DNA of 62,087 nucleotides, filler included, from Squatina squatina (Eukaryota): assembly GCA_031763465.1 (NCBI GenBank). It is 4 parts of 4 records of this genome, joined end to end, with 100 filler letters (N's around TTAATTAATTAA, not from the genome) between each part and the next. Parts side by side here need not be neighbours in the genome. Positions count along the whole stretch, not along the records: positions 31,560 to 46,959 come from JARFOE010000073.1; 3 more parts are not named here. The stretch is one strand, 5' to 3'. Both the position numbers and the translations under genes were made by a program. Of this stretch, positions 23,662 through 54,006 are shown piece by piece (positions within the stretch are counted from its first letter, which is position 1; each line of letters begins with the position of its first letter). The notes beneath the pieces were generated by a model that was not told the origin of the DNA, did not search any database, and saw nothing but the letters and a program-made list of their open reading frames with translations.

Positions 23662-24260
23662 NNNNNNNNNNNNNNNNNNNNNNNNNNNNNNNNNNNNNNN
23701 NNNNNNNNNNNNNNNNNNNNNNNNNNNNNNNNNNNNNNNNNNNNNNNNNNNNNNNNNNNNNNNNNNNNNNNNNNNNNNNNNNNNNNNNNNNNNNNNNNNN
23801 NNNNNNNNNNNNNNNNNNNNNNNNNNNNNNNNNNNNNNNNNNNNNNNNNNNNNNNNNNNNNNCAGACAGACACACACTCACATAGGCACACACACACACA
23901 AATACCCACACAGCTCCCACAGACAGCAATGTGATAATGACCAGATAATCTGTTTCAGTGATGTTGGAGGAGGGATAAATATTGGTAAGACACCGGGGAG
24001 AACTCCCCTGTTCTTCNNNNNNNNNNNNNNNNNNNNNNNNNNNNNNNNNNNNNNNNNNNNNNNNNNNNNNNNNNNNNNNNNNNNNNNNNNNNNNNNNNNN
24101 NNNNNNNNNNNNNNNNGAGTAAAACTGAACTAGTTGGGGGATAATAGCAGGCGCACATTTGCTTTCTTGTTCCTAACAAAATCCTCACAGAAAAGTTATA
24201 CGCTAAGTTTTAAAAAGTGGCACGGGGGAATTAGGTGGATGAGGCTCCTTTAACACTCAC

Positions 24261-25046
24261 CGTGATAGGTACAGAACAGATCACGAATGTAATTGTCATT
24301 ATAGCTAAAAGACTGAGGTGGTCTACTTCTTCCGAGTGAGATAATTGATCCCTTCTTGGCCGAGGTGAACTCGAGCGTCTCCGCCTCTTTTGCCTCTGGT
24401 ACATTCGGCAGAGGTTGACTATAACCGAGACGTTGCACAGCAAGATGGAAACGATCAGCACCTTCATCAGAATGGCGTAGGACAGGGAATAAACGCGGTG
24501 CTTCATCTCCATCTTCGTCTGGAATTTCATCTTGATAAAGCACCAAGTGCCGGGGCAGTACTGCACGTTTTTGCCAATGCCCAGCAGGGGCAGCGAGCAG
24601 AAGAGGAGGCAGAAGACGCAAATGGCCGGGATGGCCACCAGCCCGCAGCGCTTGCTGTTGTGCCGCTGGTAGAAGTACGGGAAGCTGATGGAGAGGCAGC
24701 GCTCCAGCCCCATGGCGAAGAGGATGAACATGGAGGTGAGCCCGAAGAATGCTATGGCGAAGGCGCAGTAGTTGCACAGGTGCAGGGCCAGCAGCGTGCG
24801 GCCCTTGCTGTAGGCCGTCAGCACCAGCGGGCTGACAAGCAGCGTGCCCATCAGGTCGGTGACGATCAGGCTGCTCACCAGGATGTGGAAGAGCGACACT
24901 TTGCTCCTGTTGTCCCTCTTGTGGACCCCCAGCACGACCAGCGCCAGCACGTTGCCCAGCACCCCGGCCCCGAACATGAGGGCGCTGGCGGTCGGCTCGG
25001 CCTCCGGGCTGATGTCGGTGGTGTTCTCGCAGGTCTCATTGTCCAT
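24261..25046 (-). CDS. PTGER2: Prostaglandin E2 receptor EP2, coding exon 1 (TM1-TM6)
   Basis: Perfect Kozak GCCGCCATGG; 262 codons; motifs MFGAGVLGN, TDLMGT, ERC, PYFYQR, QYCPGTWCF and DHLSLLAIMTITF. A GTGAGT donor follows TM6, where prostanoid receptors have their conserved intron. Exon 2 is not visible (gap). Lies between TXNDC16 and NID2 as in mammals. Confidence 0.93.
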
Positions 25047-28000
25047 GGCGGCGCCGCTTCTGGCTCACACACAGCCAGAGAGAGAAAGTCTTTCCCAATC
25101 ACTTAATGTCACTGATCCACAATTTAAAAAAAAAACACCACACACAGCAACCGAACTGCAGATAATCCGGAGCACAAAGAGTGGGGAAACCACACTTCAT
25201 ACCTGAATCAACATGTGGCTCTGAGACATCCCGCCCCGGGGCTGGACGTCAGGCTCACTCCCAACCCCCTCAGTCCCTCGGCCGCCCCTAACAACCGACT
25301 CCTCGTTTAAAACCTCCGCCTCCTTGACAACGTGAAGTGTTCCTGCGTGGTCACGCTCACTCACTCTCTCACTGGCCCCCTCGAACAATACTTTTTCACA
25401 TCTCAAAGTCTTCCAGCTGCCAACCACGCCAGTCAGTCTTCACTCAGAGTTTCCGAAAGGGAGCTGTCGGTTTTATCGGGTGATTGGATAAACTGCTGGA
25501 TGTGTGGGAGGAAGAGGATGTGAGTCGTAACTGCTTCTGAAGAAAGCACAGACGGTGCTCTGGTGCTTGGCACCAAATCATTAANNNNNNNNNNNNNNNN
25601 NNNNNNNNNNNNNNNNNNNNNNNNNNNNNNNNNNNNNNNNNNNNNNNNNNNNNNNNNNNNNNNNNNNNNNNNNNNNNNNNNNNNGTGTATGTGTGTATTT
25701 CCATGTGGAATATGGAGGGGGTGGAAGGGGGGAGGATCATGAGAAACCATAATTTTACTGTTCCATGGTGTTTTGATGTTAGTGAACTAATGTGCATTCT
25801 TAAAGGTTCTGCTTTTTCTGCTTTTTTAAAGAAAATACTTGGCACATGCATTAGGTGATGGTAGGCTGCTCTCAATGGTGGCACTGCTGTTAGAGATGCA
25901 GGTTGAAATCACCTCCTTTGGTATTGTGGGTTTCCTCTTTTGGTAAATATAAATGAACGATAAATTTTAAAGTTATTTTAACTGAATTGGTTGTGATCAG
26001 ATCCCATTTAGATTGAACTTCTCAAGTATTACAAACTATTTAAAAAAATCTAATTCTAATAACTTTTCAAAACTTCTTGGAATTTACAACTCCAGGAAGT
26101 CTTTAAATACAAACACTTACAAGTAAAGGGATAAAGCTGAGGACAATAAACAGTTCTAGACAAATTTATTTGTAAAACATAGTAGTTTAGTTTGTTGGCA
26201 GCTGACAACCTTTACTCCAATGGAAATGTTATCACATGTAAATTTAATCAAATTACTTCAATGATATGGCAAAGCTTGCTTCAATTTTTGTTTTATTTCT
26301 GGAGATAAACCTTTGTAATGAAGTGGTAAACATTTGTTAAGTTCTTTCANNNNNNNNNNNNNNNNNNNNNNNNNNNNNNNNNNNNNNNNNNNNNNNNNNN
26401 NNNNNNNNNNNNNNNNNNNNNNNNNNNNNNNNNNNNNNNNNNNNNNNNNAGGTATTTCAAGTACACTGGAAGTCTGGCTCCTTTAATCCAGAGAAATGCT
26501 TTGCTGTAACTGATACTGGTCAGGACTCAGGCCTGTCTGAGAAACAAATAGGAGCCAAAGAAGATCTGAATGCAGATATATCTGATTAAGCATGAGATAG
26601 ACCAGTGAACAAAAGACAAAAGGAACTCCTTCAGCACATTCCATATCACCATAAATTAAGCCTCTATTCAATTTCTTAACAGGCAGTGTAAGAGTTGGAA
26701 AAATGAACAAATTACCAGCTCTGTCAAGTACTGTTATTACTCAATGGTCACCCTAGAGAATTTACCAATGATAAACTATTAATGTCAGTACTGACCAGAA
26801 AAACACTGCAGAACATAGAAACTTTGCATGTTGAACCTTCTTCCAACACAGACATACGTAGCAGTGAAATAATGCAGACTATTTCCACATTTTTGGACAA
26901 TGGTAATATTCCTGGCAACAACAATTTATTTGCTTATCCCTTCCAATCTTTTCCAAGAAGTTTCCAAATCACTGTAGTAATGTTTCCTGCCATGGCTTAT
27001 GAACTTTAAATATGTGCTTCGCTTGGGGAGATAATGACCTTAATAATAACATATAGAAAAGAACTGCTGGCAAGATTTATCACAAGTAAATTTTGTTGGG
27101 TCATCACAACATTTAAGTGCTCCAAAAGAGCAGACAGGAACTATGGTCACGAAATTCATGGATTGAGAGGGTGTAAAACAATTATGGGCCTGAAATTGCA
27201 ATCTCCCCGGGTGGGAACGATATTCCCACGCACCCGGGGAGACATCACAAAAGCCGGTTATGGGGCTGTCAATCGTAAGCCCGCATAACCGGCATTTGTG
27301 ATCTGTCCAGAAACTTCTGGACAGNNNNNNNNNNNNNNNNNNNNNNNNNNNNNNNNNNNNNNNNNNNNNNNNNNNNNNNNNNNNNNNNNNNNNNNNNNNN
27401 NNNNNNNNNNNNNNNNNNNNNNNNTCTTGCCCGAGTCTGGCGGTAACGGGCGGTGCTAAACCCCCAAATTTCTCGGCCATAATCTATTAAATATGTATAT
27501 ATTACAGTCCAGTGAGCATCAAATATGAATGTCAACCAGTTTTGCGCAGCCTGTGGTGAAGCAGTGAATGACTGACCGCAACTTCAGGATTTCTGTGTTT
27601 ATCTGCGCATGCGCTAAGTCCTGAATTTATGGTCAGTTTCAGCAAATGGTGACAGTTCACCATCATTACCACTGCAAAATCTGGGCCCTTAATTTGAATA
27701 GCTGCACTCTCTTTAGAGACTGTGATTCGGGAGTCTCAAAATAAGGCGACAGAGAATTATGGAAGTGGAGATGCAGTGTGAGCCTCCACCTATATTTTTG
27801 GTACATTGCACCTTTTCCACAGGTGCTTCTGGGGTGGTGGGTCCAAGAAAATACACATTCCTTGGTATCTAATACTTTATATACAACAGGCAATGTCTTC
27901 CAAAGTGTAAATGCCACTAAGTAGCACAATAAATACTGGATAATTCTGTCAAAGTTCTGGGATTTCTTTCAGAATTACATGGAGCAGATGGATTATAGGT

Positions 28001-30221: not shown

Positions 30222-30777
30222 GTAAGTTTTGCCTTAAATCTATTTACTATTGTGCCTGATATTAAACCAGAGTATGGTTACATTTAGTAGAAGCTGTCTT
30301 CTCCGGTCAAATTACATAACTAACAATGGACCGGACCTCCTCCCGAATCAGTATTTTGTTGGGTGGTNNNNNNNNNNNNNNNNNNNNNNNNNNNNNNNNN
30401 NNNNNNNNNNNNNNNNNNNNNNNNNNNNNNNNNNNNNNNNNNNNNNNNNNNNNNNNNNNNNNNNNNNNNNNNNNNNNNNNNNNNNNNNNNNNNNNNNNNN
30501 NNNNNNNNNNNNNNNNNNNNNNNNNNNNNNNNNNNNNNNNNNNNNNNNNNNNNNNNNNNNNNNNNNNNNNNNNNNNTTACCTATTTTATGTAGATGTGAC
30601 CATGTCTGTAAATGTCGCAGTCCAGGGTTCTAATTGCCCCGAAACAGCGCTAAAAGTGCCTTAAGTAGAATCGAAGTACTTCAGATAAATATTATTGTAG
30701 CCATTAGGTTTAAGAACAAAGACTGAACGAGACTTTCCGCTGGGGTGCTGATAAACGGTTGGATCCTTTATCTTCAG

Positions 30778-31080
30778 GTAGGAACGAATGGGATCATCTC
30801 CACCCAGGATTTCCCCAGAGAGACCCAGTACGTGGACGACGGATTCCCCACCGATTTCCCGGTGATTGCGCCTTACCTGTCAGATATCGACACAAGTCAT
30901 GGCCGAGGGCGGATTTATTACAGAGAAGACGATTCCTCTGACATCCTTGACCGCGCCGGCCAGGAGATCAGGAGAGGCTTTCCTCAGAGCTCATTCACTC
31001 CGACCAACGCTTTCATCGCCACTTGGGAGAACGTGGCGCCTTATGAGGAAGTGACGCGTTCGTTTGCCTCCTCCAACAGG
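30778..31080 (+). CDS. NID2: Nidogen-2 exon 2 (NIDO/G1 region)
   Basis: CAG acceptor, [51 protein letters not shown]..., GTGAGA donor; in frame with exon 1. Confidence 0.95.
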
Positions 31081-31459
31081 GTGAGAAACTCAGCAAACTT
31101 CATTAATACTGAGAAGAAATGCCAGCAATTATGCATGTGCCTGGCTTGGGCATAGCTTTAGCAGCTAACCTATTAGTGCTTTCTTCAAAGATTGATGATC
31201 CAGCTCTTGGCCGCCACTTCAAATACAACACTAATTCCCACTATTGATTTAAACAGTGATTTGGGATTTAAAGCCAGAACTGATTAAGTCAGTGCCACCA
31301 AGCAGTCTGGTTGAAAGAAACCATGATACATTTCGTTGGTTCTTAAATATTTATCCACAAGGCAAGTCATTCTGGCTGAAATGTCATCCATTTCATAGTC
31401 AATGGTGGGCCACGGTGAGGGAGGAATGCACACTAAATCTACATAATGGCTGAGTACAT

Positions 31460-31559: not shown

Positions 31560-33209
31560 CTCATGACGTTTAACTAAATCAGTCTCCAATAAGATTAGCT
31601 CTATCGTCCCTGGCAGGCTAACGTCGAGCTCGGCGCCTCCTCCCCCCTTCTTCATGGACCTCTTGCTCTTCCTGAGGGTGATCCGCGAGTGCTTCCTCCG
31701 GGTCCCAGTTCTCCTCTTCCTCTACATCCTCATTACCTGCCTCTGGCATCTCCACCTCAAGTGGCTGTGCCCGCATGATTACAGGTTATGCAACGTGCAG
31801 CAGACGACGGTGAAGTGGGAGACCCAGAGGGGCGAGTGCTGCACCAAAACATCTGCTTGACCAGACCAATGGTCTGCTCAATGAGATTGTAGGTGGCAGC
31901 ATAGCTTTCATTGTACAAAAGCTCGCCTGCAGCGGTGGGGTTTTGCTGGGCAGTCATGAGCTATGTATCCTGCAGGTATCCCTTATCGCCTAGGATCCAT
32001 CCTTGAAGAGAATATGGTGGCTGGAACATCTCTGGCGTGCCGCTCTGCCTGAGGATGAAGGCATCGTGGGAGCTGCCCGGGTACCACGCATCCATCATGA
32101 GGATTCTTCATGTGTGGTTACACACCAGCTGAACGTTCAGGGAATGATAGCCTTTTCTGTTGCGGAAGATCTCGGGATTGCGCTCTGGGGACTTGAAGGC
32201 AACGTTGGTACAATCTGTTGCACCCTGAACCTTGGGGAAACCCGTGACATGGGCGAAACCAACAGCTCACTCTGATCCTGCCTGGTGATTGGGAAGGAGA
32301 TGTTACTGCCTGCTCCTTTAATATAGAGCTTTAGTCACCTGTCTGATGCAGCAATGCACAGCATAATGAGATGTTACACCTTGAAATGACCCATTAGCAT
32401 AGAAATTGAGGGAACTGGTTACGTTCACCGCCACTGACAGAGCCTTGCTCTGGAGGGTGAAGGTCACCTTGCAATAGTTGGTATAGCTCCGTGTTCACTT
32501 CTTTCCTGAAGCATAGTCTTCACAGACATTGTTCATCTGTCATCTGGAAATAGGTGAAATGTGGATGGAATACTCAGAGCATAACTCCTCCAATTGCCCT
32601 GGCCGCCTCTACCAGAAGCTGCATTCTGCCTTGCCTCTCGGTGGCCTGCTTCAGGGGGCTGTGGCACATCAGCTTCTCCCTGCCTATGGCCATCTGCATG
32701 ATCCTCTGGCTCCTCAGCCCTCACACATTCTGCATTCGCCTCATCTCTCTCCGTTGTATTTTCAGTCTAAGATATGTCATGTGATGCCAATGAAGCTAAA
32801 GCAGAACCCATAATTTACGATTTTCTACCACAAGGACAGGAGAATGCTAATCCAAGTCGGTAAGCTATGTCCCAAAAATAGCAACTGAGACCCCCGACAG
32901 TTAGGTTGCAGCAGTTGCCTGCCAGGCCCATTTAAACCGCCATCCTGGACAAGATGGAGGTATTCTGTGCGATGGTGGCGCAGTCCAATGCAGCACCTTA
33001 GGTCCAGAATCAGTGGCGCACAGGCTGATAATGTCGTAGCTGCCTGCCACCGCCACAACCCCTGCCACCGGCGCCCAGCCTCCAACGCTGTTTTCATGCC
33101 GGCATGAGACTCTGCCAAATTCAGCGGTTTATGCTCCAGCTGCCACCAGCAGGCGTTAGGGCTCTAACGCCCATTTGGTGCCAGTCTACACTCACCAATT
33201 AGGCCCCCC
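31560..33209 (-). mobile_element. Degenerate PIF/Harbinger transposon with DDE transposase remnants
   Basis: Minus-strand motifs RKGYHSLNVQLVC, YPGSSHDAFIL, WILGDKGY and IEQTIGLVKQ; TIR-like AATTAGGCCCCCC near 33200. Confidence 0.85.
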
Positions 33210-33407
33210 TGTAGTTTAAACTGGCAACCAACAAATCAGATAGATCAGCAATGATGTTGTGAAAGCTTAAAATACATCACTAGGTCCTGGCTGCTGTTAC
33301 GTCTGAAGTTCATATTCTTACATTTGCATTTTTTGATTAAAAAATTCCAGTGGATGAAATATATATTTTACATCATAGGCTGAATTTGAGAATTGTTTTG
33401 AGTCATA

Positions 33408-34091
33408 GGAGCCAAAATTTCCCCTTCTTATAGCCCTGTTAGTGCCTCCGTGGGGCACTAACGGAGCGTTAAGTAATTTTTGCCCAGGGCGGTGGGGGGT
33501 GCTATCGCATCCCGGGAAATTGCCACGCCCTGCAATTTATGCCCTAGGCAGGTGCACAACCGGCAATGTTGTCATCACCGTACACACCAATCCCTTTCTC
33601 CTAGCGGGATGCGAGGCTGGCGATAGCACCGCCAGCTTCGTGTGGTGCGAAGCTGGCGCACATCGACGTCCAGGCTGCCCCTTAAAAGGGGAGACCTTTT
33701 GCGCCCCAGGCCATCACCTTTTTACATCAGCCGACGCCATCTTTCAGCCTGGCACACGACTGTGGGGGTGCTGGCCCAGTCGTTCACGTCCCTGGTGACC
33801 CAGTGACGGCGATTGGCAGGCGCTACAGAGAGCGCAGCAGCCCTCCCCTTTAACTGAAGGGGAGGGGCGTTGTCGCGTGTCAGCGCTCTGCGGAGCACTG
33901 ACATCAGCGCCGCACTACTGCCCCGACACCACCCCGGAAATGAAGCAGAGCGCCAGAGACAGCACCCCGCTTCATTTCCTGGGCGGTAAGGACAATTTTA
34001 CGTTGGCAGCGGGATTTCTGGGCCAGGAACTAAAAGTTCCAGCTCTGGAGAGTTACCACCCCCAAACCAGGCACAAGGCAATTTTGGCCCC
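33408..34091. mobile_element. Harbinger-type MITE with TIRs and 3-bp TSD
   Basis: TIRs GGAGCCAAAATT / AATTTTGGCCCC, flanked by ATA on both sides (33405-33407 and 34092-34094). Confidence 0.8.
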
Positions 34092-35101
34092 ATAATCTCA
34101 AGACAACACAAAACAGCCAATGAATTATTGGCTTCACTTAAGTGTGCTGTCCAACCTTAATCACTGCACCACAATAGTTGGCAAGTAAAAAATGATGATT
34201 ACAAAATTTTCCCAAAATATATTCATGGGGCCCAAGTGCTATAGTGTGCTAGCACATTTTGCATTCACCTTTGTGACAGTGGCTTGAATCCAATCCAGAA
34301 TGGGGTGAAAGTCTTCATCTTTTCCAAGAAAAATACAATTTGGCTGTCTCAAACAATTTCTTAGTGGGTTCAGGGCCACAACACAAAACTGCACAAAATT
34401 CAGTATGAGTTTCACTCCAAGAGGCCAACAGTTAGTTGGTGTGAGAATAGGAATATGTTACAGGAGGGGATGCTTGTTTCTGGGGCTGAAGCACTTTTCT
34501 GGGCTGAAGTAGAGGTTTCATCTTGTATCTAACCCATCTTAAAGCCAACCTTGGAGTGCCTGATGGATTATTGAGGGAGCTTTACTCTGCATATAACCAT
34601 TCTATACCTTGGAATCTGTGCAAAGCAGTGTTGAGGGTCTTTATTCTATATCTAACAATGCTATATCTGACATTGGATGCTCAAAATGGAAGCTTTACCA
34701 GCACTACATCTAGCACTAGCTTTCTATTCACTAGCGCTCCCCTAAAGCACAAAAAAGTAATCAACTACATTTTAAAAATGTTGGCAGGGTATTCAACCAC
34801 ATGTGCAGTTTCCAATAGGAATTACTGGACCATGAACAGGAGTGAGAACCCTGGCTGATATCAATTATAACACTCATACTACCCTTAATGAGATTAACAT
34901 ATGAGAGGGGCTGAGCCTGCTCTGTATGGCTCAATTACACACTGTCTTTACTAAATGAGCCAACTGTTAGAGTTCCAATAGGTACTTTAAACTTCCAAAT
35001 GGTGTATCCTTGGACAAAAGATGAACAGGCAATAGCTAGCGATGCTGTGTCAGTGTCATTGACATCAGAACTTTAATTAGAGCCAAGGCAAATCGATCAA
35101 A

Positions 35102-35307
35102 TTACCTGGCAAAAGCTGAAACAGCAATTATATCCAATATCACCTCCAATCCATAGGTTACCAGAAGGATCGCATTGATTATTACATCTGCTTTCAGCAC
35201 ATAGGTCTGCCACATCAAGAAGTGCAGGGAAAGCATCACACTTCCAATTGTCAGGACCATGCTAATTACAACTGGAACAGCCTCTTCAGTCAGGTTACCT
35301 TTAAAAC
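35102..35307 (-). CDS. TMEM80: Transmembrane protein 80, terminal coding exon
   Basis: CAG acceptor, then GFKGNLTEEAVPVVISMVLTIGSVMLSLHFLMWQTYVLKADVIINAILLVTYGLEVILDIIAVSAFAR*. GNLTE, HFLxWQ and VLxAD are TMEM80-type rather than TMEM216-type (GNLCQ, YYLLLQ, VLRLE). Confidence 0.85.
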
Positions 35308-36876
35308 CTGGGGAAAAGATAGAGAATCAAACCAGCTTTAAAACCTGTACTCTGGAGACCCATTACACTTAAGGTCACGCACACAAGAAAAACCTTTATT
35401 GAATACCTGAAGCAATCCTATAGCCTCATATAGTACTAAGCCATATAGACCAGAAGGTCTCCGGTTCAAGTCATCTCTGTGCTAACTTTTTTATAAGTAA
35501 CTATTGAAATTGATAACAAGAGTGTGCAATAATAGACATGTAATTCCTGAGCTTTAAAAGTCTAAAAGCTGTAAAAGTCAAGATCAAAGAGGTTATATTT
35601 TCCAATGCCAAGTAATGCATTTTTTTATTATCAATTTTACCAGAACTGTTTTTAAAGACAGTGAAAACACAAGAGGTAACAACATGTGGCAGGCTGAAAA
35701 AGCAAACTTATTTGCAATTCTAATTTCAAAAGAAATGAGTGCATTTAGATATTGTAAATATTGGGATCAAAGAGGAGGTAGTTTCAATGCTGCTTTTCCA
35801 TCAATGCTGTCAACAAGAGTCCTTTCAGATATAGTCCTTTATTACCCAGTCCCTTAGAGTTCATATTTGTACTGCAACCAAACAGGCTTTTTTACATAGA
35901 ACANNNNNNNNNNNNNNNNNNNNNNNNNNNNNNNNNNNNNNNNNNNNNNNNNNNNNNNNNNNNNNNNNNNNNNNNNNNNNNNNNNNNNNNNNNNNNNNNN
36001 NNNTTATTGAGCCATCAGCATTATGTTGCTTTAATTTTAGGAGAAGAAAGTGACAATCTATACAGCAACACTGAAATCCTAGGTTTGGCTTTAAATATTT
36101 AAAAGAAACGGTTCTTTGGGTTTACACAATCTATGGTGTGACATCAAGCTAAACAGACTATAAGAGTTTCAGATTTGATGGCCCATGTGTGCTGAGTTAG
36201 CATGATTAGCCAGATGAGCAGTTGGGAGGGGCTCAAGCCTTAGTATCCCTACGCTTATGGAGGAGGGCAAATAAAATCAGAGTTTCCCATTCCCAATGAG
36301 TATCTAGTTACCCCCGGAAAATGTATGGGTACATAGACACCGGAAGAGAACAGGATTGAGCCAGGCTGTGATGGTCTCTATGATAAAATAACCTGCTGAC
36401 ATTCACTATCTCGGCTCATACAACAACTTGCATTTATATAACATCTTTAATGTGGAAAAACATCCCAATACGTGTGGAATGGTCACTTAGGAAAGTTATG
36501 GAGGGCACTGATGGAATTATAACCTAGCAAGAATCACTAAGGACAGAAATCACAGGAGAAAAGAAGTTCATTAAGCTTACAATCTTGAATTGAAATGCTC
36601 AAGTTTTTCCAACTGAAATTTTCATCTTACTGCTGAGAATGTAATTTTTTTAAATAACTTATATTTTCCTCAATTTGGAAATCACTGCAGTAAAGTATGA
36701 GCATTAATGTTTTGCTAAAATGATCAAAGAGCAAGATATATAGGAACACTATTTTACCCTCAATCTACTTTTCAAAAAAATGTAATCTATATGGTTCTAC
36801 TGGCACAGATTTAACACACATATAAAGGGAAAATAACGCATTTAAAATACACCCATTAACAGGATTCAAAACCTAC

Positions 36877-36970
36877 TTTTGTATATGAAAAGAAGGATCT
36901 CTGCCACAAAGTACACTGCATAGTACCAACTGTTGAGGAGTAGCAGAATTTCCAGTGGAGTCAAGGAGAG
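36877..36970 (-). CDS. TMEM216: Transmembrane protein 216, 94-nt exon
   Basis: CAG acceptor, LSLTPLEILLLLNSWYYAVYFVAEILLFIYK, GTAGGT donor. TPLEIL..LN.WY and the AEIL..F.YK pattern are TMEM216-like; TMEM80 cannot be fully excluded. Confidence 0.72.
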
Positions 36971-37347
36971 CTGATGAAAAACATTAAGGATACACCACAT
37001 ATAAAAATCTTTATTAACTGCAGCTTTTTTATTTAATAAGAATTTCAGTGTTAGACCAAACTCCCAGCAATTAGAAATCATATGGTTTCTCTTAATAAGG
37101 CTGACAATTCAGAGTCAAAGTGTGAGCAGCTTTATGCTGTGGACTCATGTCAACCAGGTTCAAACAGCCTAAAGCTAACTTCATGTAGAACCCACACAAT
37201 CAGCAGAGGGGAGACTTTGAAGCTAGGTCTCAGAAGTGAAGAACTTTCAATACTTAAATTCTCATTTACTGCACTATTCAACCTTTTGTATTTGCATCCT
37301 CAACAGAGGAATAAATCTTGCACCAATGTTAATTTACAAAAGGATAC
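36971..37347 (-). other. U12-type (minor spliceosome) GT-AG intron, 377 nt
   Basis: 5' splice site GTATCCTTTT; branch point TCCTTAAT (36990-36983), with the branch A about 13 nt from the CAG end. Confidence 0.9.
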
Positions 37348-37364
37348 AATTGGAGGAGGATTTC
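37348..37364 (-). CDS. TMEM216: 17-nt micro-exon of TMEM216 (xNPPPI)
   Basis: TTATCTTGTTTTACAG|GAAATCCTCCTCCAATT|GTATCCTT. Phase 1 in, phase 0 out, joining in frame to LSLTP. Confidence 0.8.
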
Positions 37365-38610
37365 CTGTAAAACAAGATAACAATCATTAGAAACTGTTGC
37401 ACACGTGGCTCCACTATCTGCTCAATTTGATATGGTGCTGAGTCAGACAGACCAAGGTCCAGATTTGATCCATGTTGTGTCGTTGATCTCAGCCAGGGCT
37501 ATAGTAATGGTACTGAAAATACCAGGAAGCNNNNNNNNNNNNNNNNNNNNNNNNNNNNNNNNNNNNNNNNNNNNNNNNNNNNNNNNNNNNNNNNNNNNNN
37601 NNNNNNNNNNNNNNNNNNNNNNNNNNNNNNTATACTCAGAATATAATTCTATGGTGCAGTGCAAGGAATTTTTAAAAAGGTTGGCTTGAAAGGGTACAAA
37701 ATCTCATGTTACTGTCAGGCAATACCAGACGGTTACTGATTAGCAAAAGCATGACATTTAATCAAAAATATTGAACCGTATTTTAAGCTCAAGAATTATC
37801 ACAAACAGCTTTTATTCTTCATCTATAATACTCATTGGATATTAATACATTTCAAACATTAAATAAAGACAAACATCTCAATCTTACTTTTAGATTAAGT
37901 ATGTTAATCACAATGTAGCACTAAGCGAGACAGGCCCAGTTGCAGGTCGAACTCCATATTTGTGCTGAGTTAACTAATTAGGTCTTAGTGTCGGAGCTAG
38001 GAAAATGAAAAAAAAGTCGGTGTTCCCATCCTGATCGCTATCCATAACTGCTGCCAAAAAATAAATGTGTGGCTATCAAGTGATGTCATTAATAATTAGC
38101 CTTGTATGTAAATGTATTACCTTAAAGCCACCTCTAAAGGGGGAAGACACAAACAGCACCTGCTATGATGCCCTCCACAGTCAAATAGTGCTGACACTAA
38201 TCTAGGTCACTCATTAAAAAATGCCAACTTGGAGAATTACCAGTGCCACAGAACTGTACCCCAGCAAGACAAAGTCTATTCTGGAAAGGAGATACAAAAG
38301 GGGAGAAAACTGACAAAAAATAATCTGTATGTTTGGTGGTGAGATTTGAGCAAAATTAATACCCATTTGACACAGAAACAAATAATTAATGGCAATTTCA
38401 TGATTTAGCAATGAAATGCTGAGAGAATTCCCACCTCTTACTGCTTGAGTTCAGAAAGAAAATGAACACATTAGTGTACAGCAGTCCCCAAAGAATATTT
38501 TTTCACAAATATAGCTAGAAAACTCTAAGTTAAAAATGCTCTTTTTAAAATCAAATAAAAATCCGTACATGTGTAACACAGTCCATTTTTAACGTAGTGT
38601 ATCATCCCAC

Positions 38611-38625
38611 TTGTCGCTCCGCCAT
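38611..38625 (-). CDS. TMEM216: Candidate TMEM216 first coding segment (MAERQ), directly after the TMEM138 stop
   Basis: AAG ATG GCG GAG CGA CAA|GTGGGA resembles human TMEM216 K-M-A-P-R-G, but its phase (0) does not match the micro-exon (needs 1). Confidence 0.5.
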
Positions 38626-38626
38626 C

Positions 38627-38739
38627 TTATTTTCGGACACGAAAGAATTCATTTCGGAGCCATTCTGAGTCCTCGTATAATCGAGGGTCTCCAAGGCAGA
38701 GAATAGTTCTTTTGTAGAAGTAATAGTATAAAATAGCAG
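38627..38739 (-). CDS. TMEM138: Transmembrane protein 138, last coding exon
   Basis: CAG acceptor, then [37 protein letters not shown], aligning end-to-end with human [37 protein letters not shown]. Confidence 0.93.
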
Positions 38740-39119
38740 CTGGAGGGTGGGAAAAATAAAATACAGTTTCAAGTTAGTGCTTGATGGAATTACAGTTGAA
38801 ACTTTCTACNNNNNNNNNNNNNNNNNNNNNNNNNNNNNNNNNNNNNNNNNNNNNNNNNNNNNNNNNNNNNNNNNNNNNNNNNNNNNNNNNNNNNNNNNNN
38901 NNNNNNNNNCTCTCTGTTTACCAAAAACTTACAATATTCAGCTGGAAAGATAATTACGGGATCTCCCCTCCAAGAAAAGACTGAAAGAAAGATTACATTG
39001 GTATAGCATTATCACATCTCAAATATCACATGCAATGAATTAGTTGGCAGTGTAGTGACTTGATATGCACTCAAAAATGCAACATTTGCGATTTCTTCAT
39101 TTGTTTAAAGCTTGCGTAC

Positions 39120-39291
39120 CAGAATCCAAACGTGAAAGCTGACACTCAGAAGAAAGTAAATACCAGTGACAAGAATGGTTCCTGTAAACCTGTGAATCAG
39201 CAATTTCACCAACCCAGCTTGAAAGATGAATGTGTTGAAAAACATAAGGAAGATGATGATGACATTGAAGAGAATTCCAATGTCCTGAATA
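39120..39291 (-). CDS. TMEM138: TMEM138 internal exon (172 nt)
   Basis: CAG acceptor, [59 protein letters not shown] donor; matches TMEM138 [28 protein letters not shown]. Confidence 0.95.
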
Positions 39292-40679
39292 CTGAAGGAG
39301 GAAAAAAAACAAATTTTAGATTTCTTTTTTTAAAAATTCCCAGACTAAATATAACAATTCTACAGTAACAATGCCAATTAACACATAGTGCTCCTTTGAC
39401 TGCAAATCAGCAAACACTCTTTTTGAAATCGATCAACTGGATAACTGCAGTGTCCAGTGTAGTACTGAGCCATTCAGAGTAGAGGGTCCCATGTTAGATC
39501 CCTGGTCTGTGTTGATCTCAGCGAGGGCAATATCCAGCGTGCTATTATTGTTCTCTCTGCCACCAGACCAGAGAGGGGGAAATCAATCAGAGCTCCTGAG
39601 CCCCGCCGTGTTATCCTGACTGGAAGGGACCTGCATGTGAAGGGAGGTACAAATAGGATTGGGGTTGACTGTAATGCCATCTCTGATTGAATAACTTGAT
39701 GACATTCATTGTCCAGGCTTACACAAGGCTAATGGCCACTTGGATGAAGCACAGGAAGCCAGTCATTTCCCATGGAACATTACCCCAAATAAATTAGTGC
39801 CTTNNNNNNNNNNNNNNNNNNNNNNNNNNNNNNNNNNNNNNNNNNNNNNNNNNNNNNNNNNNNNNNNNNNNNNNNNNNNNNNNNNNNNNNNNNNNNNNNN
39901 NNNTCTCCCCTGTTGCTCAAAAATCTATCTCAGCCTTGGTTCCAAAACGACATGATCAAGAGTATCCAGTTATATTGGTTGCTGACACGGTCAAGTTATT
40001 GTCATTTTCACTGAAAGATAAGAAAAACAAAACATGTACCAGTGTTTCACAGTGAATTAGTTGTGGAGTGCAATGGCTTAGGTAGGTACATGCAGCAGCC
40101 ATTCTGTGCCATAAACATCAAAGACATGACCAATTAATCTGCTTTTTTATGGTCTTTGTTGAGGCAGGAATTTTGACTGAGTCACCAGGAAAATGCCCTG
40201 TTCTTTGAACAGTGTTGTGGAATAATTCATATTCTACTGAACAGGATATTGGTTGAATCTCTCATCTGAAGGATGGCACCAGTAATGCAGCACTCCTTCA
40301 GTGTCATCCTAACTTATGTCAGAGGCAAGAGCGCAACCAACTCAAGCAAACTGGCACTTGGGCAGCATTAAAAAGATCATAGTTACATATATGAATGCAT
40401 GTTATACTGCGGCCAACACCATAAGGAGGACAGGAAATACGTTTGTGACCTGCCTCTAAAAGACAGTGGAGCTTAATTACTGTAATTGAGGTGGCATCCA
40501 TAATGGATCCATATACTGCAAACTTTGGAGTTATTGAGTGGATCAGCCGGAGCAATAAATCCACAATTGTAGTATCAGTGATGCAGTGCAGTCCCTTCAC
40601 ACTTACTCAATCTATACCATGTCCAGAGGTTCCCTTCCTACAAGCATCATGATGCTGTAGAATACTAAGAATGCTGAAT

Positions 40680-41017
40680 CTATTCTTTTGGAAGTGGTAT
40701 TCCCAGTGCTGTGTGATTCTGCAAATTCCTGGCTTTTTCTACTTCNNNNNNNNNNNNNNNNNNNNNNNNNNNCAGGGTCGCTAAGTTACTCAGACGTTTG
40801 TTTTTGGACATGGAGAACCGTAGCATGCACTCAATAACCGGCATTGCTGTGATTTCTTCCCGGGACAAAGGAGTCATCAGGTATATTAATGTGGTAATGG
40901 CAGAGAGTATCGTGTCCTCGTTCGGGCTGGATAAGCAGTCCAGCACTGCCTGAACCCCATTGTTCTGTAAAATATATTCCTTGTTCTGTTTGTCTAGACA
41001 CAGGTTACAAAGACCAC
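40680..41017 (-). CDS. ARMC7: Armadillo repeat-containing protein 7, terminal exon (27-N in-frame gap)
   Basis: [17 protein letters not shown]...[17 protein letters not shown]...VIECMLRFS...[11 protein letters not shown]. Confidence 0.93.
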
Positions 41018-41974
41018 CTGTAGGAAATGAAAACATCGTCAACATGTGGGTCCATGCAAAAAATACTATTAAGAGAAGGAGATAATGTACAAGAACTACA
41101 GGTGAGGATATGCTNNNNNNNNNNACCCACATTAAACATTCATTTTACTGTTAATGTCCATACAGTTCTCTTCCAATTTAACACATGAATTAAAAAAACA
41201 AGGTCACTGATTTATAATTGCTACAAAAGTGTGGCGACAATGACACAATCTCAACCTGAAAATACTAACACTCCCATAATGCTTTGGAATAAAAAAATCC
41301 TAATGGCCATTATATACTGGCACATTAAATACCATAAACACATATCCCTGACTCCCCATGAGGAAATCCAAAGATCCACCATTATCTCTACAAAAGTTTT
41401 GAGAGAGTCTGAAGAGCATGCATCACACTTCAAAGGGCCCAAAGCAAAAAGAAAGCCAATCCTTTAAAGTGCGGATCGATTACGTGTCAATAACCCAACG
41501 GTGAGGACATTTTACAGATTGACCAGCAAAGTTACAAGTACCTTGCTATCTGTAAAAATCCCTCATTAACAATAATTAACCCATAATTGACCTCTGGATC
41601 AATGTAAATCAATTTCCTCAAGGGAGTACCTGAGCAGTGAGCTTAAAGGGACAGGTCAGATTAGCAGTTAAACATCACAACCATCTTCCAGAACCGAGAA
41701 TACCCATAAGCTGCATCACAGAAAATCAGATAAATCTGTAGATACAAAAAATCTTGAGATGGTACTGCCAACATTTCCAGTATCGCACTTTTTCAACATA
41801 TAAATGTCATATTTCCTAAAAAAAAGGTATTTTTAAAAAGTCAATCTGGTAATTTCCTGCTGATTGCTTCAGACAAGAGGCCTGGAATAGACCACAGCTC
41901 GGAGGATCCGGATCACACAACTAAAGATGTATGCAGTGAGGTGACAAAACACAAATACAAAATTTAGTCTTTAC

Positions 41975-42118
41975 CTATTCCAAATTCTACAAATCTTTCA
42001 TTATCTTCTGTGAGCATATCCAGGAATAGATCAATGACCTGCAGCTGCCGAAGATACTGATAGTTACTGGGATCATAGGCAAAATTAGCCAGGTTTGCCA
42101 GAACTTGCTCCTTTGACT
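41975..42118 (-). CDS. ARMC7: ARMC7 middle exon (144 nt)
   Basis: AG acceptor, [51 protein letters not shown] donor; phase-compatible with the next exon. Confidence 0.95.
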
Positions 42119-42991
42119 CTGAGGAGTTAGAATAAAACAATATTAGCTTTTATACACACTGGACTGTAGAGGATCTCCTCTGGCATAATAATTGTGCTCA
42201 TCAGTCTCAGTGACTATCATATTATGATGGAATGAACATCATGTAAAAGACAACTTCAGTGATGTTTGCCCAGTAAAGCACTGCAATAAATGCCTCATTA
42301 TACACTAGATTAAAAAATACGAAACATCATAAATTTAAACACTGGCAGCTATGCGTGGACAGAATCATGAACACAACCAAAATTATTGGTTTTCATGGCA
42401 TCTGCGCCTAACATCTCTGCAAAAGTTCCTTTTNNNNNNNNNNNNNNNNNNNNNNNNNNNNNNNNNNNNNNNNNNNNNNNNNNNNNNNNNNNNNNNNNNN
42501 NNNNNNNNNNNNNNNNNNNNNNNNNNNNNNNNNTTTTGCTATCCCAACTTTGCTGTCATCTTTCATCCCAGTGCACATAGCTATGCATGATCAGCACTCT
42601 CCCTTGAATTAGTGAGTTTAAGCTTCAAACCAGGACTTGAGTGCACAGATCTAGACTGATGCTGTATTGTCTGGGGTGCTCTTTCCACTGAGATGTAAAA
42701 TCCCATGGCATTTGCAGAGCAGAGAGTTCTTGTGTCTTGGCCAACATATCATTCCTCAACTAGCATTGCCAGTTGTAAATCATCTAGCGCCCCCATCCCC
42801 ACCTCCTGCCAATAGCTATCACTGCTGAGGTCCACCAACCCAGGACAGACTTAAGTTTTTTTTTTGCTCCATAATGAGGGGGTGGCCAAACAAGTGTCCC
42901 CTTCCTTAACGGGTACAAATATGTAGGTTGTGCCTGCTACAATTGGGTTCATTTTATGATGTTCTAACTTGTTCCTCCTTTTGATCTACAG

Positions 42992-43146
42992 TGGCTGCTG
43001 GGATTCCTGGGCTTTTTGCTGCCCTGCACACCACTCTGGCTTCGAGCTGCTTACAGAGACATACATGTCTTTTTTGGACTTTGCATCTTGGCAATGACTG
43101 TTGGTGCTTGTCTGTCAGGAATTAATGAAAAATTAATATTTGTGCT
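42992..43146 (+). CDS. CYB561A3: Lysosomal cytochrome b561 (CYB561A3), internal exon
   Basis: CAG acceptor, WLLGFLGFLLPCTPLWLRAAYRDIHVFFGLCILAMTVGACLSGINEKLIFV, GTAAGT donor. Carries the HVFFG heme-ligand motif and SGINEKL; lies between TMEM138 and DDB1 as in human. Confidence 0.88.
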
Positions 43147-43997
43147 GTAAGTTTTTTTCTTGCGGTTTAAAAGAGCAAAAAAAAGTCCTCTTCCTTGCCT
43201 GTATNNNNNNNNNNNNNNNNNNNNNNNNNNNNNNNNNNNNNNNNNNNNNNNNNNNNNNNNNNNNNNNNNNNNNNNNNNNNNNNNNNNNNNNNNNNNNNNN
43301 NNNNAACAACTCCATGTGGTAGTGAGTTCTGTTCTCTCTCAAAAGTTTCTCGTGAATTTGTTATTGGATATATTCGTGAGTATCTTATATTTATGGCCCC
43401 TAGTTTTAGACTCCCCACAAGTGAAAACATTTTCTCTGCATATACCCAATCAAACCCTTTCATAATTTTAAAGACCTCTATCAGGTCACCTCTCAGTCTT
43501 CTCTTTTCTAGAGAAACTGTGACTCAGGCCATACTGGACTGTGCACTTACTCATTTAGTCCACAAGGCTCCTGGAATTTGACAATCAGCATTTTGTTGTG
43601 GATGTTCTTCTCATGGGGTTTTGAAAATTTCACTGGTTTGTTTGTTGGCCGGTCTTTACTCCCCAGTGCTTTTTAGTAAAGTAAGTTCCACTCACAGTGA
43701 ATCAACTCTATATTCACAACCTTCTGAGTTCAGTGTATACTTCAAATCTGATAAATATGATACAAAGGAATAATGTTCATTTTTTCTCTCTTTCATTTTA
43801 CTTTTGCATGGACTATAAATGGGGAAGATTTAAAAAAAAAGTATGTTTGGCCTTCAGAGTCTGGTCACCTTCATTATTTTTGGTCTTGCTCATCATTTCA
43901 TTGGACAATAAATTATATTGGTACCTGCCATGGCTTTCTCATTATCAGGTTCACGTGACTGAAAAAATTGGTATAAATTTGTACCTTTTTGCTTTAG

Positions 43998-44146
43998 GTC
44001 ACTTCACCTCAGCAGATGATCTGAACCTGCTTATTGCAAAGAACACCAGGTTGGAGATTTATGTGGTGACTCCGGAGGGTTTGCGCCCTGTCAAGGAAGT
44101 GGGCATGTATGGCAAGATAGCTGTAATGGAGCTCTTCCGACCGAAG
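43998..44146 (+). CDS. DDB1: DNA damage-binding protein 1, exon 2
   Basis: [50 protein letters not shown]; AG/GT bounded. Confidence 0.97.
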
Positions 44147-44189
44147 GTAAGATATGCAATGATGTTTCAGGCTTCAGCTGTAATTTGCT

Positions 44190-44503
44190 GAGATGAGATA
44201 GATGAATTGATGGCACAAATAGAAACAAATGGGTATGATCTGATAGCCATTACTGAGACGTGGTTGCAAGGTGACCAAGGCTGGGATCTGAATATTCAGG
44301 GGTATTTGACATTTCGGAAGGATAGGCAGAAAGGAAAAAGAGTTGGGGTAGCTCTATTGATAAAGGATGAAAACAGTACAATAGTGAGCGAAATGATCTT
44401 GGCTCGGAAGATCAAGATGCAGAATCCATTTGGGTGGAGGTGGTAAAATAGCAAGGGAAAGAAGTTACTGTTAGGGGGCCTATATACTACTCCCAACAGT
44501 AGC
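44190..44503 (+). mobile_element. CR1-like LINE ORF2 endonuclease fragment
   Basis: YDLIAITETWLQGDQGWDLNIQGYLTFRKDRQKGKRVGVALLIK. Confidence 0.85.
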
Positions 44504-44769
44504 NNNNNNNNNNNNNNNNNNNNNNNNNNNNNNNNNNNNNNNNNNNNNNNNNNNNNNNNNNNNNNNNNNNNNNNNNNNNNNNNNNNNNNNNNNNNNNNNN
44601 NNNCCAGAACAACTTTGCCTTGCTACCCATTTCTCGATTTTGAAAAGCCGAGCTATTTGACCTTGCCTTCTGCTCACTTGTCTAAATGTCCCTGTTCCTG
44701 CTGGGCTTCCACCTCTGCCCTTATAAATGGCTATTCTATGTAATGTTCTAATATCTAATAAATACTATA

Positions 44770-44870
44770 AATAAAAACAGAAAATGCTGGAAAACACTCA
44801 GCAGGTCAGAGAGCATCTTTGGAGAGAGAAACAGCGTTAACATTTCAGGCCGATGACCTTCAATCAGAAC
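44770..44870 (-). mobile_element. Short shark repeat end (Penelope-type terminus) with a degenerate hammerhead-like core
   Basis: Minus strand CTGAT(T)GA-AGGTC-ATC-GGCCT-GAAA, followed by TCTCTCTCC..GATGCT..GACCTGCTGAG..TTCCAGCATTTTCTGTTTTT. Confidence 0.45.
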
Positions 44871-44974
44871 TTTCTGTACCATCTATGCCAGACATTTTAA
44901 TAATGGTTATCCTCTTCATCCTGTACACTCTCTAACACGTTGTAATTCTACAAATGATGCTAATATCCCTTTGA

Positions 44975-45217
<243 letters not shown>

Positions 45218-46371
45218 TAGAGTTTGGAGATAACTTGGGAATGCGTTGGGTTAGACACTAGCCTTTTACCTCTGTTCCAGAAAGCAAGTAACCTAACGGG
45301 AACACATGCAGATGTGAGAATTTTTATATACGATATTGGAAAGCTGCAAAAAGGTACATTTGAAAGGCATAGTACTAGCAAGAAAAACAAAAGGTAATAA
45401 AAAGGCTTTCTATGGGCACATTAGTAATAAGATAGGCTGACCAGATGTCCCTGTTTTCCGGGCCTGTCCCCGGTTTAGAAATCTTGTCTCCAATACTGAG
45501 TTTTTGATTTTTTCAATGCTAATGCACAGAAACCCGTTTATCGGAGATTTTAGGCCCGTTTGAGTTCAGGAATTAATTCTGGAGCAGGTTCAATGGCCCT
45601 GCCTTCCTACATTGCAGTGCAGCTGAGAAAAGGCCCCATCAATATCTCTGACTGCACTGTAGGGGATTGAGTCAGCTGATCAGTATTTTATCCAGTGGTG
45701 ACTGGCCAGCGGGACCTTCAAATGCACGGGAGAAGCCAAGGGAGTGGTGAGAGCTGGTGGGTGAGTGGATTTGATTTACTTTACCAGTTTATCTGTATGG
45801 TGCATCATGTTTTTTTTACTGAATAAGAGAAGGCAANNNNNNNNNNNNNNNNNNNNNNNNNNNNNNNNNNNNNNNNNNNNNNNNNNNNNNNNNNNNNNNN
45901 NNNNNNNNNNNNNNNNNNNNNNNNNNNNNNNNNNNNGCTAATTTAGTGTAATTTATCTTAGAGTAGTAATGTCCACTAACTGCTCTACACCTACTTCTGG
46001 TAGTTTTAAAATCTCAGTATGCAATTTCTCAGTGAAAACTAGGACAAATTATGTAACTAATATCTCTGCCATTCCCTCATTCTCCACTTTAAGTGCCCTC
46101 CTTTATCACTTAACAGCCCTACACCTTGACTATCATCTTACTAGTCATGTACCCCAGAAGCCTTCATGTTTTTTACTAATTCTCTCTTATGCTCTCTCAT
46201 AAACTTTGTAATCTCCGTTTTGAAGCTCTCCCTTGTATTCTTTATATTTGTCTTGGCTTTCCTTTTCTCTCCTTTCTGGAATACACAAGGTTTATAACCT
46301 TTCCATCTGCCATGTATTTCCCATTGCTGATCGAGGGTTCTAATTGTCTATTTTCCCCCACTTCCTGCCAG

Positions 46372-46530
46372 CAAAGCACGATTGTTTGCCATAACCGCGT
46401 GGATCCCAATGGTTCACGGTACCTGTTGGGAGATATGGAGGGACGTCTGTTTATGCTGTTACTGGAGAGGGAGGAACAAATGGATGGGAACATCACTGTC
46501 AAAGACCTCCGTGTAGAACTGCTAGGAGAG
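46372..46530 (+). CDS. DDB1: DDB1 exon 7
   Basis: [53 protein letters not shown]. Confidence 0.96.
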
Positions 46531-46959
46531 GTCAGCATTCTAGCACTGGAAGTTTAATGAACTTTGCAGGCGTGTGCCTATTTGTCTGATATAAAGCCGA
46601 GAAATTGCAGTTGGTGATATGAGTACATGAATGCTTAACACTTTCCTACAACATTCCTCTATCTGCTATTTTAGTGTGAGTATTAACCCTTTTATTCAAA
46701 ATAGTTTAACATCAGGGCTGAGAAGTAGAGAGGTGAATGTAATTCTGTGCTCAAATGCTGATATTACCGACAGTATACATCTACTAACATTCACACAACA
46801 AAGTCACTACGGTGGCGAAGTTGGTGCAAAGTTTCTCTCAATACTATAACCAAGTAAAAATCAACGGCATCAGCCCTTTCACACAGCACACGAGGTACTG
46901 TGAAGAACTACTGTGGCATTGAAAAGGGAAGCGTTCCCTCGAACACTCAGAGAGCTCTG

Positions 46960-47368: not shown

Positions 47369-47653
<285 letters not shown>

Positions 47654-48780
47654 TAGGTGTGAGTTCTTTTGGCGTAAATAGTTCAATGGAACCCAACTTT
47701 CTCCTGGACCGTCTAAAATGCTAATCAAACTTAATGTTAAGTAAAGAGACAATCTACCTTTGTTCCTGTGTACTGCACACTGAAATTAATAGAATTGCGC
47801 TAGTAAAATCGTATTTTCAACCATGCTGTATGACTGCATCCTGAGCAACATGTAAAGTGTTGCCAGCATCTGGGCTGCTTCTGTTTTAATCTGGCACTGG
47901 GAATTCTGGGCAGGACATAAGAGCTTGAAATGGGAAAAGGCTGTTTGCCATCAAGCCCACTTCTACAGCATTGACACATTCATAAACTTTTCCCCCATTG
48001 CCCTCCAAGTTCTCTGTACTCATATCTGAACCCTCTTCAAAATACCTCTACAATCCTCAGTCCCCTTTTTTGACGGGTGNNNNNNNNNNNNNNNNNNNNN
48101 NNNNNNNNNNNNNNNNNNNNNNNNNNNNNNNNNNNNNNNNNNNNNNNNNNNNNNNNNNNNNNNNNNNNNNNNNNNNNNNCTTTTTAATGATCTGAATTAA
48201 TATGAAAGGCCACAACACACCAGAATATTGGGTTATGTTGAAGTACTGGTTTTCTCTGTCCATTATAGAATTTCCATCTGATTGACTACAATTTATTAGT
48301 CCTCGCTATTATTGTGTTGGCACGTCGTCTTATAATTGCAGTTGTGAAAGAGGTAAGTTGCATACAACTTTTGTCTTAACTTTGAGTAATGCGTGCTCTT
48401 TACTTTTCCAGAAGGGTTTGCATTTTGGGTTGCATAAAAAAAATGTTGTTCTGCTCCAAACATATTAAATACAATTTAAGAAATAATGTTTCTACAGTTT
48501 GCAGTATAAAAAGTGTACTTGATTTTTAAAAAAAAAATACCTTCATCAGACAATGTGGTCCAATGGATAAGAACGATTTCCTTCAATCTCCCATTCAATA
48601 AAATGAGGTTGGTCAGTCTCCGTATTCCTAGCAGGCAGCATAAAGTTGTACATAATTTGGCACAGTCTGCTCTAAACTGGGCATGAGGACAGGTCTTAAA
48701 AAAAAAAAAAGGTACAAATTAAGATCTGCAGCATCTTAGCTAATTTAAGCCGCATACTAAGCAGCAGTTTGCAGTTTTAA

Positions 48781-49068
<288 letters not shown>

Positions 49069-50563
49069 TAAGTTGCCAATTTCCAAAGATTTACTGTTAT
49101 TTCTCAAATAATAACCTTATTTAGTGTAATGGAACCGAAATTGGCATTCATTTAGCATCTGTCATGCTGGAAAGATGCCCGAGAGCAATTAACATATTAG
49201 AATATGAAATGGACACCAATCTGGTGGGAAAAGAATGGCGTTATAAACAGGGTTTGAAAAGAATAGTTGGACTTTTGTAAACTGCTAACACATCATGTTA
49301 TATGTAACATGATAAATTAATTTTTGTTTCCGACAACAACTTGTGTTGCACCTGTAACGTAGTAAAATGTCCCTAGGTGCTTCACAGGAGCGTTATCAAA
49401 CAAAATTTGATAACCTTGGATGAACTACATTTAATAGTTAAAATTCATGGGATTTTTAAAAAAACTAGTAAGCAGTACAGTGTAGTAATTCAAAGTAGTG
49501 TGTGTTGGTTTTATTTTTAAAATACAACTGGGGAAGGGAAATAAATAAGATGCTGTGTAATTGAANNNNNNNNNNNNNNNNNNNNNNNNNNNNNNNNNNN
49601 NNNNNNNNNNNNNNNNNNNNNNNNNNNNNNNNNNNNNNNNNNNNNNNNNNNNNNNNNNNNNNNNNGATTGGTGTTCAGCTCTCCCAACAGTGGGTCATGT
49701 GTGCAGTTGAATCTAAAACGAAGGAAAGGCAGTGAATTGGATTATACGCACCACATTAGGAAAGTAATTTTAAAATGTTTTGCCCTTGATGTGCTCGAAT
49801 TCCATTTACCTGTGATGCAAATTTGAGGTTCCACAAGTTAAAAGTTGTCACTGCAGTGTTTTGCCTGAAAATTAGTAGCACCTTTCTAGCTGATGTGGTT
49901 TGTAGGATTCCTACAGTGCAAATTAGATGCAGCTGGGCTACAGTGACATCTACAGTAATTACCAGATATTCTCAGAAAAGGTATCAGTATTGACATTAGT
50001 AATCTGCTTTAATACCCAGATTTTTAATAACCCTGTTTTCACTAGGCTTATTTAGCTGAATGGGAACAGTACATTTCCAAATGCTCTTTTAACGTTGTGA
50101 GATATTCCTCTAATACCTCAAATTCTCCAGCAAATGATAGATTTATATGTTTTTCTGCTCCACTGTGTGTTCTGGACCCAAGTGCCTCTGCCTCTCTCCT
50201 CATCTCGTAACTGCTTCACCCTTATGTTCTTCTCCATCTCCTGTCTCTCTCTGTCGCCTTTGCTCTGTCCCAATTTTCCAGCCCCAGCACTATTCCTTTT
50301 CTCTCTTTTATCTTAGGCTTTTATTCCCTAATGGACTGGCTCACAGCCTCCTGCAGCCTTAATTTACCCCTTATTCACCGCATCTACCAATGCACATGCC
50401 ATTCCCTCATTGCATAACACCTAATCCCACCTGCATGGCGTGAACAGGCCTCTGCCATAAACTGATTTTCTTGGGTATGAATTAGTGAAAATTTGCTGGT
50501 AACAAATTTTGCAACGAACTAACAGAGGATATGACATGCTTATTATATTTTCTACTTTTTCAG

Positions 50564-50746
50564 GTTTGGAATGTATATACCTTTCTTTCGCCTGAATTAT
50601 GATCCAAAGAAGTCAAATCTCCCATCATCTGTGGCAAACATAGGCCCCAATGAGACAGGAACAGCTGTTGGAAAAAGTAAAGACTATTTAACAGTTTTAA
50701 AGGAAACTTGGAAACATCATACAAGCCAGATGTACAGCATAAACAC
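50564..50746 (+). CDS. TMEM39B: TMEM39B internal exon (3' end lost in gap)
   Basis: CAG acceptor, FGMYIPFFRLNYD...KDYLTVLKETWKHHTSQMY; runs into an N gap. Confidence 0.88.

Positions 50747-51929: not shown

Positions 51930-52121
<192 letters not shown>

Positions 52122-52636: not shown

Positions 52637-52861
<225 letters not shown>

Positions 52862-53754: not shown

Positions 53755-54006
<252 letters not shown>

Follow-up and report, generated by a model that had tools for sequence, protein, structure and literature searches.

The DNA analysed here is from Squatina squatina (assembly GCA_031763465.1) and comprises 62,087 nt, called the window below, made up of four parts of four records with 100 N between parts. 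The TMEM138/TMEM216 locus lies on the part taken from JARFOE010000073.1 (window 31,560 to 46,959), with both genes on the minus strand. The window contains 45 N runs, 29 of them of exactly 100 N, and 46 contigs with a median length of 1.1 kb. A Pfam profile search with all 269 stop-to-stop segments of at least 58 aa in the window gave fragments of TXNDC16 (17662-17892), a rhodopsin-type GPCR (24234-25064), nidogen (30727-31152), cytochrome b561 (42968-43147), DDB1 (43685-46554), TMEM39 (47369-54003) and importin-alpha (55255-55479). Because gene fragments are strung together with many N runs, gap sizes are not reliable and exons are hidden in gaps, and gene order and distances across the 62-kb window should not be trusted. 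The called sequence lacks TMEM138 residues 1-42 and about 100-125, TMEM216 residues 42-71 and the first coding exon of ARMC7; neither TMEM138 nor ARMC7 nor TMEM216 retains its start-codon exon. A GC-richer minus-strand stretch at 31560-33200 has broken frames, which we take to resemble a Harbinger-type transposase, and no Pfam match at 1e-4. The features of the locus are collected in Table 1.

Table 1. Features of the TMEM138/TMEM216 locus, in window coordinates.
Feature	Position	Strand	Basis
TMEM138 internal coding exon, about residues 43-100	39120..39291	-	tblastn 88-93% to shark/ray TMEM138; Pfam PF14935; splice sites
TMEM138 last exon, coding part, phase-1 entry, end RVRK-TAA	38627..38739	-	C-terminus same as in 162-aa shark/ray proteins
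16 nt after the stop, with ATG at 38625; read as start of the TMEM138 3' UTR	38611..38626	-	no indel in 4/4 relatives; one variable site, 38615; ATG absent in skates
7-codon ORF MAERQVG* from the adjacent ATG if unspliced	38602..38625	-	no sign of function
GT taken as donor in the earlier note	38609..38610	-	donor scoring and relatives: weak, lost in one relative
AATAAA, candidate TMEM138 poly(A) signal	37811..37816	-	811 nt past the stop, before the gap
N gap	37531..37630		100 N, true size not fixed; 166 nt upstream of the TMEM216 micro-exon
TMEM216 17-nt micro-exon (G)NPPPI, phase-1 entry, phase-0 exit	37348..37364	-	orthologues (G)KPPP(I/V); upstream intron homologous to Pristiophorus
TMEM216 intron with U12-type signals	36971..37347	-	donor GTATCCTTTT at 37347; branch-like TCCTTAAT at 36990-36983
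TMEM216 exon 3, residues 10-41	36877..36970	-	77-97% identical to chondrichthyan TMEM216
Last exon of a PF09799-family gene, other contig	35102..35307	-	42-48% identical to chondrichthyan TMEM216; Pfam

TMEM138 appears as an ordinary gene of its family: the visible exons are 88-97% identical to their orthologues, carry PF14935 and end in RVRK-stop like the 162-aa proteins, with two exons lying in gaps. On the minus strand the TAA (38629-38627) is followed by a G at 38626, an ATG at 38625-38623 and the first GT at 38610-38609, 16 nt past the stop. According to one study, UAA followed by A or G is the commonest eukaryotic stop signal and terminates strongly and efficiently, and the mammalian readthrough context is UGA CUAG (10.1101/2021.04.18.440353). 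The TMEM138 stop, UAA-G, is not such a leaky context, and we agree with the earlier note that it is no classical readthrough context.

The micro-exon and exon 3 are orthologous to elasmobranch TMEM216. The intron between them has donor and branch signals of U12 type. The intron-extended Mustelus and Stegostoma models (FLNV) imply that the branch motif of the micro-exon intron is conserved in sharks. Whereas sharks have the 17-nt micro-exon followed by a U12-type intron, amniote TMEM216 models seem to lack both. In the parts of the literature texts found, a minor intron of TMEM216 is not addressed, and there is nothing on TMEM80 with U12. The exon at 35102-35307 stands where the last exon of TMEM216 would be expected. 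A protein search (Atlas) returned the PF09799/TMEM216 family only and a search against the PDB gave no matches. Judged by its sequence, this exon is likely a paralogue, presumably TMEM80-like, and not the TMEM216 of this locus; it would then be either mis-scaffolded or a true tandem neighbour.

The earlier note had proposed a splice from the GT at 38610 to the micro-exon, by which the TMEM138 frame would continue through its TAA into TMEM216. Its coordinates, letters, 16-nt spacing and phase-1 micro-exon entry are all correct. If the splice took place, the TMEM138 frame would indeed be RVRK*DGGATRNPPPILSLTPLEIL, and the frame of the adjacent ATG would be MAERQEILLQFSP*. The use of this GT as a donor was assumed, however, and is left unconfirmed by its score: it reaches 1.0 bits, where three donors that end exons in the window score 1.9-3.2, and it ranks 5th of the 68 GTs upstream of the micro-exon. 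The GT and the micro-exon sit on different contigs, with a 100-N gap between them. The 100 nt that follow the TMEM138 stop contain five GTs, three of them in phase 1; chance alone would thus account for the frame match. Two options had been missed. Skipping of the micro-exon puts the adjacent ATG (38625) in the TMEM216 frame, and a second in-frame ATG is found at 37000, in the intron after the micro-exon and 30 nt before exon 3; the Mustelus isoform model P0108 starts at the position matching this intronic ATG.

The junction was compared with contigs of four other organisms over 38571-38720, at about 92-96% identity; none of these is recorded as RNA, and contigs drop rare forms. In the stretch 38600-38630, where the earlier note had asked for an indel check, none of the four relatives has an indel in its contigs, and the only indel listed is one of 2 nt at 38576 in X12. 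This makes a missing G unlikely. The GT is kept at the same distance in three of the four, and in X6 (depth 8, one contig) its G is changed. No splice joint at the junction is listed in the contigs, not recorded as RNA, of any of the four. The 16 nt past the stop hold one variable site (38615) versus eight in the next 21 nt among the four relatives, a difference with a Fisher p of 0.029 that is post hoc and derives from related species that are not independent. At 38615 all four relatives differ from the window; the readthrough frame encodes the same amino acid before and after this change, and the ATG frame has Arg-to-Gln. The conserved stretch resembles a YY1 site, which could account for the conserved 16 nt without a coding role.

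X10 (80 million letters of contigs, which may be RNA) has one 2306-nt contig straight through the junction; its kind is unrecorded, and it is not counted as RNA evidence. Among the runs listed as sharing sequence with the window, the best share was 0.19 and none is recorded as RNA, which says nothing about expression. X1 matches at 95-99% or better but spans only 37637-38131, outside the junction. In X15 and X16, of which about 6 in 100 reads were examined, no read aligned. X2 and X12 each have a second contig in which about 45-55 nt of the TMEM138 3' flank (38568-38622) recur beside different neighbours; the loose end of this contig has an 8-mer in common with the gap edge at 37530, but the 8-mer occurs five times in the window. 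Two metagenome pattern scans for shark DNA of the TMEM138/TMEM216 locus gave no matches.

In skates the sequence past the stop takes another course. Five skate Logan ORFs in the TMEM138 cluster contain the whole spliced coding sequence and then continue with W-V-G-R... for 28 residues past RVRK, 27 codons on from the stop position, whereas the named skate TMEM138 proteins end at RVRK. We infer that the W at the stop position is a TGA read as W by the gene caller. The Val directly after that position means that G-ATG is absent there, though Amblyraja TMEM216 starts MARG. An alignment of the skate extension to the window flank reaches 38559, which lies 50 nt beyond the GT, and its score was equalled by one of 500 shuffles and by none of 500 other regions; against the whole window the match is not significant (20.8 bits, shuffled mean 22.0). 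Since the match extends beyond the GT, skate transcripts likely run unspliced through the flank. Past the stop there is thus no conserved coding extension: the sequence is kept in close relatives, the donor is lost in one of four, and the skate extension is different.

The start of TMEM216 was sought in orthologues with the TMEM216 half of P0005 as query, which matched 151 proteins, of which 120 are listed. Among the matches listed, 17 of 18 elasmobranch species have models with an MA(R/K/G)(G/A) start before the micro-exon, and the 18th, Rhinoraja, has only a truncated isoform. The 35 chondrichthyan models listed divide into 21 with MA(R/K/G)(G/A), one with MVRKG (Callorhinchus) and 13 alternative or truncated isoforms; none of the 35 has MAE near its start, or DGG. 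Such a first exon would be three codons plus one base (10 nt), and its phase-1 end fits the entry of the micro-exon. The end of this exon is fixed by isoforms P0118 and P0134, which join MARG straight to exon 4. In Stegostoma the frames of P0106 and P0137 overlap with one compatible offset, giving ATGCA(A/G)A as the 7 bases before the MARG ATG; with no Lys-stop-G in these bases, the TMEM216 start does not abut the TMEM138 stop there. These orthologues are predicted models, from pipelines that would not annotate stop readthrough, and their mutual agreement suggests that the MARG-type models have RNA support. The first exon itself is not in the called sequence. On both strands of the window, none of the 30 ATG-N6-G-GT sites encodes MA(R/K/G), and a degenerate exon-1 pattern had no exact match in the called sequence and 15 one-mismatch matches versus 13.9 expected.

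Taken together, it is very probable that TMEM138 ends normally at its TAA, that the 16 nt after it belong, like the GT, to plain 3' UTR, and that TMEM216 exon 1 is lost in a gap. The apparent readthrough fusion probably comes from a splice site that falls in frame by chance within an ordinary 3' UTR, and the flagged mechanism is likely not real. This reading is carried by the following results: the orthologue models in which shark and ray TMEM216 opens with a 10-nt coding exon, ATG-Ala-Arg-G, ending in phase 1 and fitting the micro-exon; the absence of an exon of that kind from the called window sequence; the junction without indel in the relatives; and a GT that is not invariant. The TMEM138 mRNA would be cleaved near the AATAAA at 37816, and TMEM216 transcription would start at a separate promoter inside the gap, yielding MARG-NPPPI-LSLTPLEIL.... 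The in-frame phase of the first GT past the stop would then be a one-in-three coincidence. The order of the features makes the gap at 37531-37630 the likely place of TMEM216 exon 1 and its promoter, although exon 1 could instead be in another gap or unassembled elsewhere. The earlier note had considered an extra exon in the N gap; an exon does appear to be missing there, but it would be TMEM216's own ATG-bearing first exon and not an internal one that follows the adjacent ATG and corrects the phase.

The headline of the earlier note, UAA readthrough with a splice from 38611 to the micro-exon yielding a full TMEM138-X-DGGAT-TMEM216 fusion, is not supported by these results. Its continuous frame, the 16-nt spacing in all four relatives with the GT in three, and a linker that varies less than the next 21 nt and whose lone change is silent in the fusion frame speak for it. 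Yet the donor is weak and its GT lost in X6, skates have a different sequence past the stop, UAAG is a strong terminator (10.1101/2021.04.18.440353), and in 17 species TMEM216 models open with a start of their own. Of the 89 longer TMEM138 matches, none passes RVRK into TMEM216, a weak argument as pipelines do not model readthrough. We regard such a fusion as extremely improbable. Less credible still, and hardly worth entertaining, is a G missing at the donor through assembly error or a null allele. The added G does improve the donor, from 1.0 to 3.9 bits, and puts the adjacent ATG in frame, as had been said. The idea is contradicted by the intact 38600-38630 stretch in four of four other organisms and by orthologues that start MARG, not MAERQG.

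The least improbable of the rivals, though one to which we give little credence, makes the adjacent ATG a lineage-specific TMEM216 start, reached by re-initiation or from a nearby promoter, with 38611 spliced to exon 3 and the micro-exon skipped to give MAERQ-LSLTPLEIL. The ATG is in frame there, has a purine-rich context and is invariant in all four relatives. An intact micro-exon and its U12-type intron signals would however go unused, the GT is lost in X6, no model among the 35 listed starts with MAE, and the stretch 36004-43300, which includes this site, shows no CpG island. Ranking between this start and the readthrough fusion, and likewise very unlikely, is that the two contigs are mis-joined or mis-spaced, with TMEM216 exon 1 far off or in another gap. 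The window does hold gene fragments of several blocks (TXNDC16, GPCR and nidogen; the TMEM138 locus; TMEM39 and importin-alpha), and a likely paralogous exon occupies the expected place of the last TMEM216 exon. Against a mis-join, TMEM138 and TMEM216 models have an equal longest source sequence in several chondrichthyans, e.g. Heptranchias, S. canicula and Callorhinchus, and order and strand fit head-to-tail linkage.

That linkage has a counterpart in mammals. Two reports describe TMEM138 and TMEM216 of human and mouse as head-to-tail with shared regulation (PMC9169668, PMC12148096). At this JBTS2-region ciliopathy locus there are two separate genes in the same order and strand as in the shark. 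The spacing differs: it is about 23 kb in human, and in the shark, where the gap size is not fixed, stop and micro-exon are separated by at least 1.26 kb. Linkage of the two genes in cartilaginous fish was reportedly described by Venkatesh et al. in 2013. ARMC7 (40680-42131, minus strand) is found directly upstream of TMEM138 in the same orientation, with an exon 98% identical to a Heptranchias perlo model. The TMEM138 exon reaches 88-95% identity to models of sharks and rays, and both values fit a shark scaffold. In five chondrichthyans (Heptranchias, Carcharodon, Mustelus, Hemitrygon and Callorhinchus) the models of ARMC7 and of TMEM138 or TMEM216 have an equal longest source sequence, so linkage at the chromosome level looks real. 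A donor-like GTAAGT is present about 75 nt past the ARMC7 stop, and an acceptor-like site near 40010. An ARMC7-TMEM138 co-transcript, considered on the basis of a skate TMEM138 5' extension homologous to 39904-40680 (the ARMC7 3' flank), was rejected, as 84 of 500 shuffles and 130 of 500 other regions reach its score.

Two known systems resemble the proposed fusion in part. In programmed stop-codon readthrough the class context is UGA CUAG, whereas the shark has UAAG, an extension that is unconserved in skates and a donor that is not invariant; its frame is open past the stop only if the assumed splice happens. Conjoined genes and cis-splicing chimeras involve same-strand neighbours at short distance with matching phase, here phase 1, as in the shark. 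In such chimeras the upstream gene loses its last exon and readthrough of a stop is not required; none was seen in this shark. The last TMEM138 intron and the micro-exon entry of TMEM216 are both in phase 1, and a skip of the last exon would thus be in frame in sharks without readthrough. The penultimate TMEM138 exon, which would supply the donor, falls in the gap 38810-38909.

Among the 89 longer TMEM138 matches, six also carry TMEM216 sequence; five of these are without the TMEM138 last exon, and none goes through the stop. Predicted chimeras of 262-325 aa from seven bird and lizard species (P0048, P0050, P0063, P0073 and P0323-P0325; two RefSeq and five GenBank predictions) have one join, FQRL to (G/D)R. 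As neighbouring genes are often merged by gene predictors, the bird and lizard chimeras are a lead only. P0005 of S. torazame was discarded as readthrough evidence: it leaves TMEM138 before the stop, and the later RefSeq model P0091 splits the genes. The literature search returned no paper on a TMEM138-TMEM216 chimera, and neither gene is named among the chimera papers listed. That the two genes are co-transcribed and give one fused membrane protein by skipping the TMEM138 last exon, from the donor after residue 125 to the micro-exon, is therefore a speculative proposal that we consider unlikely.

For gappy assemblies, the locus holds the lesson that, when a first exon of 10 nt is absent, the GT closest upstream comes to resemble a donor. 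The exon-skip fusion, if true, would mean that a chimera has been conserved between sharks and sauropsids. A fusion that is both real and conserved would offer a new reason, beyond the shared regulatory elements described so far, for the continued linkage of two unrelated ciliopathy genes and for the indistinguishable disease that they cause.
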